Shown here in pieces: positions 18,790 to 59,279 of a DNA stretch of 64,000 nt (its first letter is position 1; each line of letters starts with the position of its first letter). The DNA lies in the NCBI RefSeq assembly GCF_056746865.1, contig NZ_CM163382.1; one strand, written 5' to 3'. The translations under genes were made by a program, and so were the position numbers. The notes beneath the pieces are model-generated. The model was not told the DNA's origin and searched no databases. It was given only the letters and a program-made list of their open reading frames with translations.

Positions 18790-18822
18790 AAAATGCCAGC
18801 CGATCGGGCTGGCATTTTGCCT
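18790..18822. terminator. Putative bidirectional terminator between convergent macB and cspD
   Basis: Hairpin gccagcc-gatc-gggctggc flanked by A-run and T-run (aaaatgccagccgatcgggctggcatttt). Confidence 0.6.
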
Positions 18823-41981: not shown

Positions 41982-42014
41982 ACAACCGGGGTTTCGACCC
42001 CGGTTCTCTTTTAT
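41982..42014 (+). terminator. Putative terminator after dmsC (overlaps the 3' end of convergent ycaC)
   Basis: Hairpin aaccggggtttcgaccccggtt followed by ctcttttatttc. Confidence 0.6.
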
Positions 42015-45904: not shown

Positions 45905-45940
45905 AATAAAAAAGCGGCAACTCAAAAAAGTTGCCGCTTT
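45905..45940 (-). terminator. Putative rho-independent terminator of pflA
   Basis: Hairpin aaagcggcaac-tcaaaaaa-gttgccgcttt with an A-run on + upstream (T-run on the minus strand), 10 bp past the pflA stop. Confidence 0.65.
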
Positions 45941-50481: not shown

Positions 50482-52242
50482 TTATTTTGCCCAGAATGCT
50501 GCTTTGGCGCGCTGCAGCTTTTCGTAGGCCTTCAACAACGACTGATGTGCAGCAAACGCGTGCAGATCGCTATCTACTGGTTGCAAACCATAAAACGCCG
50601 CTTCGCCGCTCATTGCCGCACTGGCGGCTTCCACGGCATCTGCGCCGTACATGCGAACAAACGCATTCAGATATTGCAGCGGCTGGCGATCTTCTTCCTG
50701 CGCCAGTAATAACAACGTTTGCAGGCAGCGATAATAGTTGGCGCGTTCCGGGCTGAATACCGATGAGTTAAACTCCATCGTCCATTCGGTCCAGACCAGA
50801 GCCTGTTCCAGATCGCCACCAGCCAGCGCCAGCATGGCTTTTAATTCACCGATACGCAGGGTGTACCAACCGTTATCCGACCCGGTCGCCAGACCCAACA
50901 GCTCACGCACGCGGGTAAAGTCATCAAAACCTTCTTCATCCAGTTGCTCGATGAGGTTCAGGTAATCTTCTTTTTCCCACTCGCTGCCTGGTAACGAAAG
51001 AATCGTTTCACGTAAATGGCTGCCCATACTGTTATTCGCCAGCCACAGATCTTCAGCCGGATAAATATCGGACATGCCAGGTACGATAATTCTGCATGCA
51101 TAAACGCCCAGATGCTCGTAATCGGCAATATAAACTTCTTTATCTTCTTTGTTGAAGATAGCCATCAGCGTAGCAAACTCTTCTTCCGTAGTGCCGGAGA
51201 AATTCCAGTCCACAAACGGATAATCGGCATCCTGCTTGAACAGATCCCAGGAGATTAAACCGCTGGAATCGATAAAGTGCGTTTCGAGGTTGGTATGTTC
51301 AGCAACTTCTTCATCATCGAAGGTTGGCGGAGTAAACACATCCAAATCTTTCAGGCCACGACCTTGCAGCAGCTCGGTCACGGTACGTTCCAGTGCTACG
51401 CCAAAATCAGGATGTGCACCGAAAGAGGCAAAGCAGGTGCCGTTAGCAGGATTGAACAGTACCACGCAAATCACCGGATACTGGCCGCCAAGCGAACCAT
51501 CATAAGCAAAGATTGGGAAACCTTCTGCTTCCAGCGTTTCGATGGCTTCAACCACCGCTGGGTAACGCGCCAGCACGTCTGCCGGGATTTCCGGCAAGCT
51601 GATGCTTTCAGCAATAATGCGGTTTTTCACGTAGCGTTCGAAAACTTCGGACAACCCCTGAACGCGTGCTTCGTTGCGGGTATTGCCAGCGGACATACCG
51701 TTAGAAACGTACAGGTTACCAATGATATTCATCGGAATATAAACGGTCTGATTGTCGGACTGGCGCGTAAACGGCAGACCGCAAATACCACGATCTTCGT
51801 TACCGGATTGCAGGTCAATCAGCATACTGCCGGCCAGTTCATTCTCCGGATCGTAAAATGCGCGCAGACGGTCATCGAGCAGCCCTTCTGGCACATCGTC
51901 ATTTTCGCTCAGTGGGAACCATTTTTCGTTGGGATAATGCACGAACGGACCGTTGGCGATGGTTTCGCCCAGCCAGAAATCAGCAAAAAAGTAGTTGGTT
52001 GAGAGACGCTCGAAATATTCACCGAGTGCAGAAGCCAGCGCCGCTTTTTTGGTTGCGCCTTTACCGTTGGTAAAACACAGTGCGCACTCTTTGTCGCGAA
52101 TATGTACAGACCAGACGTTAGGCACCGGATTCAGCCAGGAGGCCTCTTCAATCTGAAAGCCGAGGTCTGAAAGTTTTTGCTGGAAGCGAGCGATGGAATC
52201 TTCCAGTGCGGCATCTTTGCCGGGGATAAATGTTTGCGTCAT
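50482..52242 (-). CDS. ycaO: YcaO-domain protein (ribosomal protein S12 methylthiotransferase accessory factor)
   Basis: ORF 50482..52275; start at MTQTFIPGKDAALEDSIARFQQKLSDLGFQIEEASWLNP gives 586 aa. Confidence 0.9.
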   Translation of the reverse strand: MTQTFIPGKDAALEDSIARFQQKLSDLGFQIEEASWLNPVPNVWSVHIRDKECALCFTNGKGATKKAALASALGEYFERLSTNYFFADFWLGETIANGPFVHYPNEKWFPLSENDDVPEGLLDDRLRAFYDPENELAGSMLIDLQSGNEDRGICGLPFTRQSDNQTVYIPMNIIGNLYVSNGMSAGNTRNEARVQGLSEVFERYVKNRIIAESISLPEIPADVLARYPAVVEAIETLEAEGFPIFAYDGSLGGQYPVICVVLFNPANGTCFASFGAHPDFGVALERTVTELLQGRGLKDLDVFTPPTFDDEEVAEHTNLETHFIDSSGLISWDLFKQDADYPFVDWNFSGTTEEEFATLMAIFNKEDKEVYIADYEHLGVYACRIIVPGMSDIYPAEDLWLANNSMGSHLRETILSLPGSEWEKEDYLNLIEQLDEEGFDDFTRVRELLGLATGSDNGWYTLRIGELKAMLALAGGDLEQALVWTEWTMEFNSSVFSPERANYYRCLQTLLLLAQEEDRQPLQYLNAFVRMYGADAVEAASAAMSGEAAFYGLQPVDSDLHAFAAHQSLLKAYEKLQRAKAAFWAK

Positions 52243-52371
52243 GAAAATCACTTTAGTCGTACGGAAAGCGCGCAATAATACGGGTTTTATCTCAAAGGCG
52301 CTATCACCGCCGCCATGCCGATGAACTGTTGACTATGCTTTTAGTGGATAAACCACGATAAGAGCATAAAA

Positions 52372-53064
52372 ATGAAGGCGTTTGATCTCCACCGTATGGC
52401 ATTTGATAAAGTGCCTTTTGATTTCCTTGGCGAAGTGGCACTACGTAGTCTTTATACCTTTGTACTGGTTTTTTTGTTCCTCAAAATGACCGGAAGACGC
52501 GGTGTGCGGCAGATGTCGCTTTTTGAAGTGTTAATCATTCTGACGCTGGGATCAGCGGCGGGAGATGTGGCGTTTTATGATGATGTGCCGATGGTCCCGG
52601 TACTTATCGTCTTTATTACTCTGGCGTTGTTATACCGCCTGGTAATGTGGTTGATGGCACACAGTGAAAAACTGGAAGATCTTCTGGAAGGTAAGCCGGT
52701 TGTCATTATTGAAGATGGCGAGCTGGCCTGGTCGAAACTCAATAACTCCAACATGACGGAATTTGAGTTCTTTATGGAGCTACGATTGCGCGGTGTAGAG
52801 CAGTTGGGGCAAGTACGTCTGGCGATTCTCGAAACCAACGGGCAAATCAGTGTCTATTTCTTTGAAGATGACAAGGTGAAACCGGGCTTACTTATTTTAC
52901 CCAGTGACTGTACTCAGCGTTACAAAGTGGTACCCGAGTCGGCGGACTATGCCTGCATTCGTTGCAGTGAAATCATTCATATGAACGCGGGGGAAAAACA
53001 ATTATGTCCGCGCTGTGCAAATCCAGAATGGACGAAGGCAAGTCGGGCAAAACGGGTGACGTGA
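52372..53064 (+). CDS. ycaP: DUF421-family membrane protein YcaP
   Basis: 230 aa; N-terminal TM segments; MKAFDLHRMAFDKVPFDFLGEVALRSLYTFVLVFLFLKMTGRRGVRQMSLFE. Confidence 0.85.
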   Translation: MKAFDLHRMAFDKVPFDFLGEVALRSLYTFVLVFLFLKMTGRRGVRQMSLFEVLIILTLGSAAGDVAFYDDVPMVPVLIVFITLALLYRLVMWLMAHSEKLEDLLEGKPVVIIEDGELAWSKLNNSNMTEFEFFMELRLRGVEQLGQVRLAILETNGQISVYFFEDDKVKPGLLILPSDCTQRYKVVPESADYACIRCSEIIHMNAGEKQLCPRCANPEWTKASRAKRVT

Positions 53065-53262
53065 CAGTAAAAACATCGGCTTTTTGCTAATAATCCGAGA
53101 GATTCTTTTGTGTGATGCAAGCCACATTTTTGCCCTCAACGGTTTTACTCATTGCGATGTGTGTCACTGAATGATAAAACCGATAGCCACAGGAATAATG
53201 TATTACCTGTGGTCGCAATCGATTGACCGCAGGTTAATAGCAACGCAACGTGGTGAGGGGAA

Positions 53263-54351
53263 ATGGCTCAAATCTTCAATTTTAGTTCTGGTCCGGCAAT
53301 GCTACCGGCAGAGGTGCTTAAACAGGCTCAACAGGAACTGCGCGACTGGAACGGTCTTGGTACGTCGGTGATGGAAGTGAGTCACCGTGGCAAAGAGTTC
53401 ATTCAGGTTGCAGAGGAAGCCGAGAAGGATTTTCGCGATCTTCTTAATGTCCCCTCCAACTACAAGGTATTGTTCTGCCATGGCGGCGGTCGCGGTCAGT
53501 TTGCTGCTGTTCCGCTGAATATTCTCGGTGATAAAACCACCGCAGATTATGTTGATGCCGGTTACTGGGCGGCAAGTGCCATTAAAGAAGCGAAAAAATA
53601 TTGCACGCCTAATGTCTTCGACGCCAAAGTGACTGTTGATGGTCTGCGCGCGGTTAAGCCAATGCGCGAATGGCAACTCTCTGATAATGCTGCTTATATG
53701 CATTACTGCCCGAATGAAACCATCGACGGTATCGCTATCGACGAAACGCCAGACTTCGGCAAAGATGTGGTGGTCGCCGCCGACTTCTCTTCAACCATTC
53801 TTTCCCGTCCGATTGACGTCAGCCGTTATGGCGTGATTTACGCTGGCGCGCAGAAAAATATCGGCCCGGCAGGCCTGACAATCGTCATCGTTCGTGAAGA
53901 TTTGCTGGGCAAAGCGAATATCGCGTGTCCGTCGATTCTGGATTATTCCATCCTCAACGATAACGGCTCCATGTTTAACACGCCGCCGACATTTGCCTGG
54001 TATCTGTCTGGTCTGGTCTTTAAATGGCTGAAAGCGAACGGCGGTGTAGCTGAAATGGATAAAATCAATCAGCAAAAAGCAGAACTGCTGTATGGGGTGA
54101 TTGATAACAGCGATTTCTACCGCAATGACGTGGCGAAAGCTAACCGTTCGCGGATGAACGTGCCGTTCCAGTTGGCGGACAGTGCGCTTGACAAATTGTT
54201 CCTTGAAGAGTCTTTTGCTGCTGGCCTTCATGCGCTGAAAGGTCACCGTGTGGTCGGCGGAATGCGCGCGTCTATTTATAACGCCATGCCGCTGGAAGGC
54301 GTTAAAGCGCTGACAGACTTCATGATTGAGTTCGAACGCCGTCACGGCTAA
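53263..54351 (+). CDS. serC: Phosphoserine aminotransferase
   Basis: 362 aa [54 protein letters not shown]. Confidence 0.97.
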
Positions 54352-54368
54352 TGCCGAAATTTTGCTTA

Positions 54369-54400
54369 ATCCCCACAGCCAGCCTGTGGGGTTTTTATTT
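54369..54400 (+). terminator. Intercistronic hairpin with T-run between serC and aroA (putative attenuator or partial terminator)
   Basis: ccccacagccagcctgtgggg followed by tttttattt, 20 bp before the aroA start. Confidence 0.5.
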
Positions 54401-54421
54401 CTGTTGTAGAGAGTTGAGTTC

Positions 54422-55705
54422 ATGGAATCCCTGACGTTACAACCCATCGCTCGTGTCGATGGCACTATTAATCTGCCCGGTTCCAAGAGCGTTTCTAACC
54501 GCGCTTTATTGCTGGCGGCATTAGCACACGGCAAAACAGTATTAACCAATCTGCTGGATAGCGATGACGTGCGCCATATGCTGAATGCATTAGCAGCGTT
54601 AGGGGTAAGCTATACGCTTTCAGCTGATCGTACGCGTTGCGAAATCATCGGTAACGGCGGTCCATTACACGCAGAAGGTGCCCTGGAGTTGTTCCTCGGT
54701 AACGCCGGAACGGCAATGCGTCCGCTGGCGGCAGCTCTTTGTCTGGGTAGCAATGATATTGTGCTGACCGGTGAACCGCGTATGAAAGAACGCCCCATTG
54801 GTCATCTGGTGGATGCGCTGCGCCTGGGCGGGGCGAAGATCACTTACCTGGAACAAGAAAATTATCCACCATTGCGTTTACAGGGCGGCTTTACTGGCGG
54901 CAACGTTGAAGTTGATGGCTCCGTTTCCAGCCAGTTCCTCACCGCACTGTTAATGACTGCGCCTCTTGCGCCGGAAGATACGGTGATTCGTATTAAAGGC
55001 GATCTGGTTTCTAAACCTTACATCGACATCACACTCAATCTGATGAAGACGTTTGGTGTTGAAATTGAAAATCAGCACTATCAACAATTTGTCGTTAAAG
55101 GCGGGCAGTCTTATCAGTCTCCGGGTACTTATTTGGTCGAAGGCGATGCATCTTCCGCTTCTTACTTCCTGGCAGCAGCAGCAATCAAAGGCGGTACTGT
55201 AAAAGTGACCGGCATTGGACGCAACAGTATGCAGGGTGATATTCGCTTTGCTGATGTGCTGGAAAAAATGGGCGCGACCATTTGCTGGGGCGATGATTAT
55301 ATTTCCTGCACGCGGGGTGAACTGAACGCTATTGATATGGATATGAACCATATTCCTGATGCGGCGATGACCATTGCCACGGCGGCGTTATTTGCAAAAG
55401 GCACCACCACGCTGCGCAATATCTATAACTGGCGTGTTAAAGAGACCGATCGCCTGTTTGCGATGGCAACAGAACTGCGTAAAGTTGGTGCGGAAGTAGA
55501 AGAGGGGCACGATTACATTCGTATCACTCCACCGGAAAAACTGAACTTTGCCGAGATCGCAACATACAATGATCACCGGATGGCGATGTGTTTCTCGCTG
55601 GTCGCATTATCAGATACGGCTGTGACGATTCTTGATCCAAAATGTACCGCTAAAACTTTTCCAGACTATTTCGAGCAATTGGCGCGGATAAGTCAACCCG
55701 GCTGA
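54422..55705 (+). CDS. aroA: 3-phosphoshikimate 1-carboxyvinyltransferase (EPSP synthase)
   Basis: 427 aa [53 protein letters not shown]. Confidence 0.97.
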
Positions 55706-55750
55706 ATGAATAACGGGCGATAACATAGACAATCCTTTCTTTTCAAAGAC

Positions 55751-55777
55751 GTCGGCACATTGCCGGCGTTTTTTTTC
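55751..55777 (+). terminator. Putative rho-independent terminator of the serC-aroA operon
   Basis: Hairpin cgtcggcacattgccggcg followed by ttttttttc. Confidence 0.7.
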
Positions 55778-55874
55778 GGACCTTGTGGGGTATTTTTATT
55801 AATGGTAGCGTTAATTATCAATGTAACTTGTTGATACATAATGTTTATATATAATTAATCAACGGATGATTCAC

Positions 55875-56639
55875 ATGAAGAATACTAAATTATTGCTGGC
55901 GATTGCGACCTCTGCAGCCTTACTGACAGGATGTCAGAATACGCACGGTATTAATACCGATTTGGCTATCAGCTCAGGTCTGAATGCTTATAAAGCCGCA
56001 ACATTAAGCGATGCTGATGCTAAAGCAATCGCCAATCAGGGCTGTGCCGAAATGGACAGCGGCAATCAAGTCGCAAGTAAATCCAGCAAGTACGGTAAAC
56101 GTCTGGCAAAAATCGCCAAAGCATTGGGTAACAATATTAATGGCACGCCGGTCAACTATAAGGTTTATATGACCAGCGACGTCAACGCATGGGCGATGGC
56201 GAACGGCTGTGTTCGTGTCTACAGTGGCCTGATGGACATGATGAACGACAACGAAATTGAAGGCGTTCTGGGTCATGAACTGGGCCACGTCGCGTTGGGT
56301 CACTCGCTGGCTGAAATGAAAGCTTCTTATGCGATCGTTGCCGCACGTGATGCGATTTCCGCTACCAGCGGTGTGGCTTCCCAGCTTTCTCGCTCACAAT
56401 TAGGTGATATCGCAGAAGGCGCGATCAATGCTAAATACTCCCGCGATAAAGAGTCCGAAGCAGATGATTTCTCCTTTGATCTGTTGAAGAAACGTGGCAT
56501 CAGCACCCAGGGGCTGGTTGGCAGCTTTGAAAAATTGGCCAGCCTGGATGGCGGTCGTACCCAGTCCATGTTTGACTCTCACCCACCATCAACAGAGCGT
56601 GCGCAACACATCCGTGATCGTATCGCCTCTGGTAAGTAA
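55875..56639 (+). CDS. ycaL: M48-family metallopeptidase lipoprotein YcaL
   Basis: ORF 55866..56639; MKNTKLLLAIATSAALLTGC lipobox; zinc motif HELGHVALGH; 254 aa from the MKNTK start. Confidence 0.88.
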   Translation: MKNTKLLLAIATSAALLTGCQNTHGINTDLAISSGLNAYKAATLSDADAKAIANQGCAEMDSGNQVASKSSKYGKRLAKIAKALGNNINGTPVNYKVYMTSDVNAWAMANGCVRVYSGLMDMMNDNEIEGVLGHELGHVALGHSLAEMKASYAIVAARDAISATSGVASQLSRSQLGDIAEGAINAKYSRDKESEADDFSFDLLKKRGISTQGLVGSFEKLASLDGGRTQSMFDSHPPSTERAQHIRDRIASGK

Positions 56640-56811
56640 ATCATTGTCATCTTTCGGGCTGGTCTTCTGCCAGCCCGCTATAATTGCGCAATAAATCCCC
56701 ATCTGAATACAGACAAAACTGGTTTTTGCACACAACGTTAACGATTTGTGGCGTCGGCGCGTATAATGCGCGCGGTTATGTTAACGGTACGCCTGTTTTA
56801 AGGAGATAAAG

Positions 56812-57495
56812 ATGACGGCAATTGCCCCGGTTATTACCATTGATGGCCCAAGCGGTGCAGGGAAAGGCACCTTGTGTAAGGCTATGGCGGAAGCGTTGCA
56901 ATGGCATCTGCTGGACTCGGGTGCAATTTATCGCGTACTGGCACTGGCGGCATTACATCACCATGTTGATGTTGCATCGGAAGATGCGCTGGTGCCGCTG
57001 GCATCCCATCTGGATGTACGTTTTGTGTCGACCAATGGCAATCTGGAAGTGATCCTCGAAGGGGAAGATGTCAGCGGCGAAATTCGTACTCAGGAAGTGG
57101 CGAATGCTGCTTCACAAGTCGCGGCATTCCCACGCGTTCGTGAAGCATTATTGCGTCGCCAACGCGCGTTTCGCGAATTACCAGGCTTGATTGCCGATGG
57201 CCGCGATATGGGAACGGTGGTATTCCCTGATGCGCCAGTGAAAATTTTCCTTGACGCCTCCTCGGAAGAACGTGCGCATCGCCGCATGCTACAGTTGCAG
57301 GAGAAGGGCTTTAGTGTTAACTTTGAGCGCCTTTTGGCCGAGATCAAAGAACGCGACGACCGCGATCGTAACCGAGCGGTAGCGCCACTGGTTCCGGCAG
57401 CCGATGCTTTAGTGTTGGATTCCACCACCTTAAGCATTGAGCAAGTGATTGAAAAAGCGCTACAATACGCGCGCCAGAAATTGGCTCTCGCATAA
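56812..57495 (+). CDS. cmk: Cytidylate kinase
   Basis: 227 aa [41 protein letters not shown] (P-loop). Confidence 0.96.
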
Positions 57496-57605
57496 GCGAC
57501 CGAATTTGCAGTACCCCCGTTGCAATGGAATGACAGCGGGTATGTTAAACAACCCCATCCGGCATGGAGCCAGGTGGACGTTAAATATAAACCTGAAGAT
57601 TAAAC

Positions 57606-59279
57606 ATGACTGAATCTTTTGCTCAACTCTTTGAAGAGTCCTTAAAAGAAATCGAAACCCGCCCGGGTTCTATCGTTCGTGGCGTTGTTGTTGCTATCGA
57701 CAAAGACGTAGTACTGGTTGACGCTGGTCTGAAATCTGAGTCCGCCATCCCGGCTGAGCAGTTCAAAAACGCCCAGGGCGAGCTGGAAATCCAGGTAGGT
57801 GACGAAGTTGACGTTGCTCTGGACGCAGTAGAAGACGGCTTCGGTGAAACTCTGCTGTCCCGTGAAAAAGCTAAACGTCACGAAGCCTGGATCACGCTGG
57901 AAAAAGCTTACGAAGATGCTGAAACTGTTACCGGTGTTATCAACGGCAAAGTTAAGGGCGGCTTCACTGTTGAGCTGAACGGTATTCGTGCGTTCCTGCC
58001 AGGTTCTCTGGTAGACGTTCGTCCGGTGCGTGACACTCTGCACCTGGAAGGCAAAGAGCTTGAATTCAAAGTAATCAAGCTGGATCAGAAGCGCAACAAC
58101 GTTGTTGTTTCTCGTCGTGCCGTTATCGAATCCGAAAACAGCGCAGAGCGCGATCAGCTGCTGGAAAACCTGCAGGAAGGCATGGAAGTTAAAGGTATCG
58201 TTAAGAACCTCACTGACTACGGTGCATTCGTTGATCTGGGCGGCGTTGACGGCCTGCTGCACATCACTGACATGGCCTGGAAACGCGTTAAGCATCCGAG
58301 CGAAATCGTCAACGTTGGCGATGAAATCACTGTTAAAGTGCTGAAGTTCGACCGCGAACGTACCCGTGTATCCCTGGGCCTGAAACAGCTGGGCGAAGAT
58401 CCGTGGGTAGCTATCGCTAAACGTTATCCGGAAGGTACCAAACTGACTGGTCGCGTGACCAACCTGACCGACTACGGCTGCTTCGTTGAAATCGAAGAAG
58501 GCGTTGAAGGCCTGGTACACGTTTCCGAAATGGATTGGACCAACAAAAACATCCACCCGTCCAAAGTTGTTAACGTTGGCGATGTAGTGGAAGTTATGGT
58601 TCTGGATATCGACGAAGAACGTCGTCGTATCTCCCTGGGTCTGAAACAGTGCAAAGCTAACCCGTGGCAGCAGTTCGCGGAAACCCACAACAAGGGTGAC
58701 CGTGTTGAAGGTAAAATCAAGTCTATCACTGACTTCGGTATCTTCATCGGCCTGGACGGCGGCATCGACGGCCTGGTTCACCTGTCTGACATCTCCTGGA
58801 ACGTTGCAGGCGAAGAAGCAGTTCGTGAATACAAAAAAGGCGACGAAATCGCTGCAGTTGTTCTGCAGGTTGACGCAGAACGTGAACGTATCTCCCTGGG
58901 CGTTAAACAGCTCGCAGAAGATCCGTTCAACAACTGGGTTGCTCTGAACAAGAAAGGCGCTATCGTAACCGGTAAAGTAACTGCAGTTGACGCTAAAGGC
59001 GCAACCGTAGAACTGGCTGACGGCGTTGAAGGTTACCTGCGTGCTTCTGAAGCATCCCGTGACCGCGTTGAAGACGCTACCCTGGTTCTGAGCGTTGGCG
59101 ACGAAGTTGAAGCTAAATTCACCGGCGTTGATCGTAAAAACCGCGCAATCAGCCTGTCTGTTCGTGCGAAAGACGAAGCTGACGAGAAAGATGCAATCGC
59201 AACTGTTAACAAACAGGAAGATGCAAACTTCTCCAACAACGCAATGGCTGAAGCTTTCAAAGCAGCTAAAGGCGAGTAA
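57606..59279 (+). CDS. rpsA: 30S ribosomal protein S1
   Basis: 557 aa [46 protein letters not shown]; six S1 domains. Confidence 0.98.

Follow-up and report, generated by a model that had tools for sequence, protein, structure and literature searches.

A hairpin and U-tract between serC and aroA of Escherichia coli, very probably a constitutive, incompletely efficient Rho-independent terminator

To our knowledge, the intercistronic terminator of the E. coli serC-aroA operon has already been described in the literature. Duncan and Coggins reportedly defined the operon in 1986, with serC ending 70 bp before aroA and with a shared promoter for both genes, 58 bp upstream of serC. In the work of Man, Pease, and Winkler from 1997, RNase T2 protection is said to have shown that 80–90% of the serC transcripts are single-gene mRNAs; the monocistronic serC mRNA was reportedly attributed to likely Rho-independent termination between serC and aroA, and the serC-aroA cotranscripts are said to end at another Rho-independent terminator after aroA. 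The rpsU-dnaG-rpoD operon of E. coli also has an internal partial intrinsic terminator, which sets the stoichiometry of the operon genes. A hairpin and U-tract are likewise located between two cotranscribed genes in rhlB-gppA-pehV and gcvTHP of Dickeya dadantii (PMC9239193), where the downstream gene is expressed by read-through only, at a reduced level. The efficiency and the condition dependence of such partial internal terminators vary case by case. The trpL and pheL attenuators similarly place an intrinsic terminator before a biosynthetic gene, but they lie in a 5' leader with an antiterminator fold and a sensor (a leader ORF or an aptamer), and serC-aroA has neither. The full-text literature searched on serC/aroA termination contained no discussion of the hairpin that we found.

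The locus analyzed here lies in a 64-kb stretch of DNA (the window), the source of which is the E. coli chromosome. A 401-base stretch around the hairpin is 100% identical in many complete genomes, and of 5426 complete E. coli genomes, 5425 gave a match to the serC-aroA junction; the remaining one gave none at all, and five of the matches in the genome collection were plasmid-borne. The gene order, according to the RefSeq annotation of an identical E. coli strain, is ycaO, ycaP, serC, aroA, ycaL, cmk, and rpsA. The features of the serC-aroA region are listed below, with the source of each in parentheses.

53171..53199, + strand: promoter-like site upstream of serC, ATGATA-17-AATAAT (consensus scan, 9/12)
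53263..54351, + strand: serC CDS, phosphoserine/phosphohydroxythreonine aminotransferase (ORF list, RefSeq annotation)
54352..54370, + strand: unpaired U-rich spacer from the serC stop to the hairpin, 19 nt (sequence)
54371..54378, + strand: 5' arm of the terminator stem, CCCCACAG (sequence, scan, fold)
54379..54383, + strand: terminator loop CCAGC, 5 nt (fold)
54384..54391, + strand: 3' arm of the terminator stem, CUGUGGGG (sequence, scan, fold)
54392..54400, + strand: U-tract UUUUUAUUU, from the first base after the stem (sequence, scan)
54409..54413, + strand: Shine-Dalgarno-like GAGAG of aroA, 8 nt before the ATG (sequence)
54422..55705, + strand: aroA CDS, EPSP synthase (ORF list, RefSeq annotation)
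55748..55776, + strand: second hairpin, GACGUCGGCA-CAU-UGCCGGCGUU, then 8 T (sequence, fold)

The identities of the two genes are clear: the serC ORF matched the NCBIfam equivalog models NF003764 and TIGR01364, and the aroA ORF matched the equivalog TIGR01356, in each case with scores far above the cut-offs. The serC stop codon is TAA (54349–54351), and the spacer to aroA is 70 nt. The promoter-like site at 53171..53199 is likely to be the operon promoter that feeds the terminator, as judged from its sequence and position. Its –10 hexamer ends approximately 63 nt before the serC ATG, and a transcription start a few bases downstream thus fits the promoter distance of 58 bp that was reportedly found in 1986. 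The 70-nt spacer, this promoter-like site, and the hairpin with an 8-T run at 55748–55776 together fit what was reportedly described in 1986 and 1997. Compared with the serC(pdxF)-aroA terminator of E. coli K-12, for which the 70-bp spacer, the upstream promoter, and the second terminator are reported, the locus and the element are the same and nothing is detectably different; the window comes from another E. coli strain.

A consensus scan of 54200–54421 found no sigma-70-like promoter between the hairpin and aroA. A perfect TTGACA at 54188–54193 was considered as the –35 element of an internal aroA promoter and was rejected by eye, since the hexamer 17 nt downstream, TCTTTT, is unacceptable as a –10 element. 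The best promoter-like match in the region, TTAACG-18-TATAAT (10/12) at 56738–56773 on the + strand, lies just upstream of cmk and overlaps a GC-rich palindrome, GCGCGTATAATGCGCGC. The GAGA of the aroA ribosome site is invariant in 19 of 19 Enterobacteriaceae, and more distant genera have GGAGA in the same place.

The hairpin after aroA (–14.7 kcal/mol, z-score –4.3) starts 43 nt past the aroA stop and, with its T-run, is likely the end of the bicistronic transcript; it was not listed by the consensus terminator scan. The Rfam family PsrR1 matched over this region (E = 0.11), the only match in 52000–57000; the match is sub-threshold and probably due to chance, and it was discarded.

The sequence between the two genes has the canonical anatomy of an intrinsic terminator: a GC-rich hairpin with a U-tract 3' of it, both on the transcribed strand and past the end of a CDS. 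The spacer reads TAA-tgccgaaattttgcttaat-CCCCACAG-ccagc-CTGTGGGG-TTTTTATTT-ctgttgtaGAGAGttgagttc-ATG, from the serC stop to the aroA start. The hairpin, carried on the coding (+) strand, is separated from the serC stop codon by 19 nt and folds on its own with –13.4 kcal/mol, accounting for 93% of its ensemble. Release of the serC-only transcript is expected at approximately 54398–54400, as is usual for intrinsic terminators. On the minus strand, the copy of the hairpin is followed by ATTAAGC and not by a T-run. A sequence-only reading had already placed a hairpin and a T-run at 54369–54400; that stretch, atCCCCACAGccagcCTGTGGGGTTTTTATTT, does contain both, the T-run being TTTTTATTT at 54392–54400. 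The details of the stem needed correction. The perfect 9-bp stem described there is in fact one of 8 perfect Watson-Crick pairs, 6 of them G-C, because the ninth pair would be a C-C mismatch, and the right arm quoted as ggctgtggg is absent from the sequence, which has gcctgtgggg. The hairpin had also been located 20 bp upstream of aroA, which is right when counted from the end of the T-run (21 nt to the ATG) but not from the end of the stem (30 nt).

The combination is far too strong to be expected by chance. With both strands counted, four separate sites in the 64-kb window have a hairpin of 8 or more perfect pairs, 6 or more of them G-C, with a loop of 3–8 nt and 7 or more T in 9 nt. In 100 dinucleotide shuffles of the window, the mean number of such sites was 0.05 and the highest was 2. 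The three other equally strong sites, at 41984–42005 (+), 45914–45937 (–), and 18794–18814 (–), are presumably the terminators of other genes. The serC-aroA hairpin ranked first in a simple terminator scan of 51000–58000, and a search for its palindrome that tolerated two mismatches gave a single match in the window. The low expectation and the uniqueness of the palindrome in the window indicate that the hairpin is real. The spacer sequence occurs at a median of one place in each E. coli genome, and a covariance model matched this spacer only, in 54 sources, besides weak reverse-strand echoes of the palindrome. A REP (repeated extragenic palindrome) family was ruled out by the single copy in the window and in each E. 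coli genome.

In order to examine the conservation of the stem, the spacers of 19 Enterobacteriaceae were aligned. The serC-aroA spacer ranges from 67 to 76 nt, and in 18 of the 19 the hairpin starts 15–21 nt past the serC stop and ends 29–33 nt before the aroA start; in Kosakonia, the exception, the scan extended the stem into the flanks, hence the readings of 6 and 23 for start and end. The stem occurs in several versions, all of them paired: CCCCACAG/CTGTGGGG, CCCCGCAG/CTGCGGGG, CCCCTGCAG/CTGCAGGGG, CCCCACGG/CCGTGGGG, and CCCCGCGGG/CTCGCGGGG. In an unbiased MAFFT alignment of the 19 species, 94.7% of the cells were paired versus 38–66% with the partners slid, and five species showed a swap from G-C to A-U in the stem. 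The covariance-model alignment, which is biased towards structure, gave 98.8% of the cells paired and 4 of the 8 pairs changed on both sides, a result matched by none of 500 shuffles. Both alignments together thus show 95–99% pairing versus 36–68% in the slid controls and compensatory change in 2–4 of the 8 pairs. In addition, several species have a G·U wobble at one shared stem position (CGCGG/CTGCG), and Pluralibacter has a U·G. Read from the opposite strand or as DNA, these wobbles would become C·A mismatches, which indicates that the selected structure is the RNA of the + strand. The loop sequence varies freely among species, and the spacer between the serC stop and the hairpin is poorly conserved in sequence. 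In E. coli and every close relative, a conserved U-tract comes immediately after the hairpin, and positions T45, T47, and T48 are conserved to at least 90% in the alignment. These patterns suggest that selection acts on the terminator structure and not on its sequence.

Within E. coli, approximately three quarters of the complete genomes share the 76 bases of the window at the spacer, and the variants examined differ outside the hairpin only, at two unpaired spacer positions (54355 C>T and 54368 T>A). One strain carries a larger change. In E. coli P31_YH1_02.21 (NZ_CP085063.1, L083 3040–3790), an IS200C lies directly after TTTTTATT of the serC terminator and separates the terminator from the aroA ribosome site. 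A second IS200C copy lies just after aroA, and both insertions abut terminator T-runs. Judging from this arrangement, aroA in this strain would have to be expressed through or from the IS200C element.

The architecture extends beyond the close relatives of E. coli. A scan for AroA with one genome per species gave 80 loci, of which about 50 have serC as the immediate upstream neighbor of aroA. All of the loci with this neighborhood were from Enterobacterales, except for a rumen metagenome bin labelled only Gammaproteobacteria (L070); in other groups, among them Vibrio and Pasteurellaceae, serC and aroA are not adjacent. Of 51 Enterobacterales serC-aroA spacers, 40 had a single hairpin of –9 kcal/mol or lower with a T-tract, versus 5.8 expected from shuffles. 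The stem sequences of Pantoea, Erwinia, Dickeya, Brenneria, Rahnella, and Serratia, and likewise those of Yersinia, Morganella, Proteus, Providencia, and Edwardsiella, are unrelated, and the combination of hairpin and T-tract recurs among these genera. The fact that distant genera share the architecture with unrelated stems suggests that the function has been retained through turnover of the sequence. The other 11 spacers, e.g., those of Photorhabdus and some Yersinia, have no good T-tract and mostly retain a GC-rich hairpin; in lineages with a poor T-run, the hairpin may be more an RNA stabilizer, or a cofactor may be needed.

The arrangement of the spacer differs in some of these lineages. 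In Morganellaceae (Providencia, Photorhabdus, Moellerella, and Proteus; loci L034, L038, L041, L042, and L045–L049), the hairpin is close to the serC stop and is followed by an AT-rich spacer of 70–270 nt before aroA, and several of the hairpins (Photorhabdus) have no T-run. In Yersinia aldovae (L035 2240–2500), the spacer has grown to 255 nt by an insert that contains ...CAGGAGCTTACACAAGTAAGTGACTGGGGTGAACG... and is placed upstream of the conserved hairpin; from its appearance, we take the insert to be an ERIC/IRU repeat.

Published transcript data from a relative and from E. coli bear directly on termination. In D. dadantii 3937, serC is its own transcription unit and aroA-cmk-rpsA-ihfB is the next, and the serC-aroA spacer has a termination site of the class "strong+pred" 27 nt past the end of serC (PMC9239193, Table S1); this class denotes RNA-seq stop enrichment beside a predicted hairpin (PMC9239193). 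A medium-strength start at 2184093, inside the 3' end of serC, feeds aroA-cmk-rpsA-ihfB in this organism (PMC9239193, Table S1), which shows that read-through is not necessarily the sole route to aroA in every species. The equivalent E. coli region has no promoter-like match, and the route to aroA expression may differ between genera. In E. coli, Miyakoshi and colleagues reported in 2025 that aroA is cotranscribed with serC; the small RNA GcvB pairs with the serC 5' UTR, and the serC and aroA mRNAs are both lowered to similar extents (PMC11878033). Should the hairpin act as a terminator while aroA relies on the serC promoter, only partial termination would account for both. Neither serC nor aroA is listed in the supplementary files of Adams et al. 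2021, which are possibly incomplete; one of these files looks like a list of bicyclomycin-responsive 3' ends.

The canonical anatomy, the compensatory changes in the stem, the recurrence of the architecture in 40 of 51 spacers versus 5.8 expected, the D. dadantii termination site, and the cotranscription of aroA led us to conclude that the element is very probably a constitutive, incompletely efficient Rho-independent terminator within the E. coli serC-aroA operon. The partial terminator that the sequence-only reading had offered as one possibility is thus supported. The Rho independence of the terminator is suggested by its sequence and by what was reportedly concluded in 1997. In the mechanism that we propose, RNA polymerase would start at the serC promoter and transcribe serC, and 19 nt past the stop codon it would produce the 8-bp GC-rich hairpin and then UUUUUAUUU. 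Most polymerases would probably let go of the RNA in the U-tract and leave a serC-only mRNA, and the 3' hairpin would guard this mRNA from exonucleases. A minority of polymerases would read through and make the serC-aroA mRNA, in which a GAGAG ribosome site of its own, 30 nt past the hairpin, would allow aroA to be translated, and which would end at the second hairpin and T-run after aroA. The outcome would be a roughly fixed excess of serC message over aroA message from a single regulated promoter.

An alternative that we regard as improbable is that the hairpin is a post-transcriptional element: read-through would be efficient, the bicistronic RNA would be cut or degraded from its 3' end, and the hairpin would block 3'-to-5' exonucleases, so that serC mRNA would exceed aroA mRNA by differential stability and not by termination. 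Hairpins at 3' ends are known to protect the upstream segments of operon mRNAs, as REP does in malEFG, and the 11 of 51 spacers with a GC-rich hairpin and a weak T-run suggest that the hairpin alone has value. However, the blocking of exonucleases does not require the U-tract that is conserved directly after the hairpin, and the termination site in D. dadantii coincides with a predicted intrinsic terminator. The two roles are, moreover, not exclusive, since a terminator hairpin stabilizes the RNA that ends in it.

It is less probable still, and in our judgment very unlikely, that the element is a regulated attenuator, in which read-through into aroA varies with amino-acid supply, growth rate, a small RNA, Hfq, or NusA and the serC:aroA ratio is adjustable instead of fixed. 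Nothing direct favors such regulation. The operon mixes two pathways of differing demand, and internal termination sites in D. dadantii are in general mostly condition dependent (PMC9239193). Most Enterobacteriaceae have a U-rich stretch (UUUUCAU or UUUUUUCAC) ahead of the hairpin (alignment columns 10–24), and this stretch, the hairpin, and the 3' U-tail together appear to resemble the Hfq-binding module of small RNAs. That module, as reportedly described by Ishikawa and coworkers in 2012, consists of a U-rich stretch with a terminator hairpin and a U-tail.

The folding analyses argue against a switch. RNA was folded in contexts that began 0–470 nt upstream and extended up to 209 nt downstream, and the mean probability of the eight stem pairs over these contexts was 0.92–0.995, about 0.99 on average; one stem pair fell to 0.42 in RNA starting at 54200, the sole upstream context with such a drop. 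A search of the 170 nt upstream and the 130 nt downstream yielded no competing helix of at least 6 nt with the left arm, and the matches to the right arm in the same flanks were weak and G·U-rich only. The RNAalifold consensus of 19 Enterobacteriaceae species contains the terminator hairpin alone. When the spacer is folded as a whole, the minimum-energy structure gains an outer helix of GCUUAAU with GUUGAGU near the aroA ribosome site (z-score –1.84), and this extended fold was dropped, as the 19-species consensus does not retain the outer helix. No Rfam family was found at the hairpin at E-values up to 1, and no leader ORF or antiterminator was found in the spacer and the flanking sequence. 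The 19 nt between the serC stop and the stem, a spacer with an unconserved sequence, leave no room for a leader peptide; the stop is also far enough away that, given the size of the ribosome footprint, a terminating ribosome should be clear of the stem and not mask it. The lack of a rival fold, an Rfam element, and leader room favors a constitutive hairpin over an attenuator driven by a sensor. The attenuator of the sequence-only reading, understood as a regulated switch, is not supported: no alternative pairing, leader ORF, or Rfam element was found for it, and the hairpin itself forms with a probability of about 0.99.

Three further roles for the same sequences, even taken jointly, are given little weight by us. 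The extent of read-through into aroA could be adjusted, for example by growth rate or by Hfq or NusA at the module of U-rich stretch, hairpin, and U-tail; the terminated 3' end of serC could be an Hfq-bound regulatory RNA or sponge; and the U-tract upstream of the aroA ribosome site might double as a translation enhancer that binds ribosomal protein S1 on read-through transcripts. If true, the S1-enhancer role would explain the tight distance of 29–33 nt from the hairpin to aroA in Enterobacteriaceae.

The least tenable explanation, to which we give almost no credence, is a palindrome acting at the DNA level (a protein-binding or recombination site or a REP-like repeat) or a chance inverted repeat: the repeat is perfect and the minus strand folds equally well (–14.9 kcal/mol), but its single copy in the window and median of one place per E. 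coli genome, the wobbles that would be mismatches in DNA and on the other strand of arms that vary with pairing kept, the T-run on the + strand only, and the chance expectation of 0.05 per 64 kb exclude it.

A constitutive partial terminator would suit an operon in which one promoter serves two pathways of very different demand. The flux through SerC for serine plus lysine is approximately 1.03 mmol/gDCW/h in a quoted flux-balance simulation, and the aromatic pathway via AroA, we infer, needs much less. The leaky terminator between the two genes would give the operon a built-in expression ratio, which makes the serC-aroA partial terminator a textbook operon design. Its practical use is confined to annotation and to the engineering of aroA or serC expression, for example in strains that produce aromatic amino acids or vitamin B6 and in vaccine strains based on aroA.
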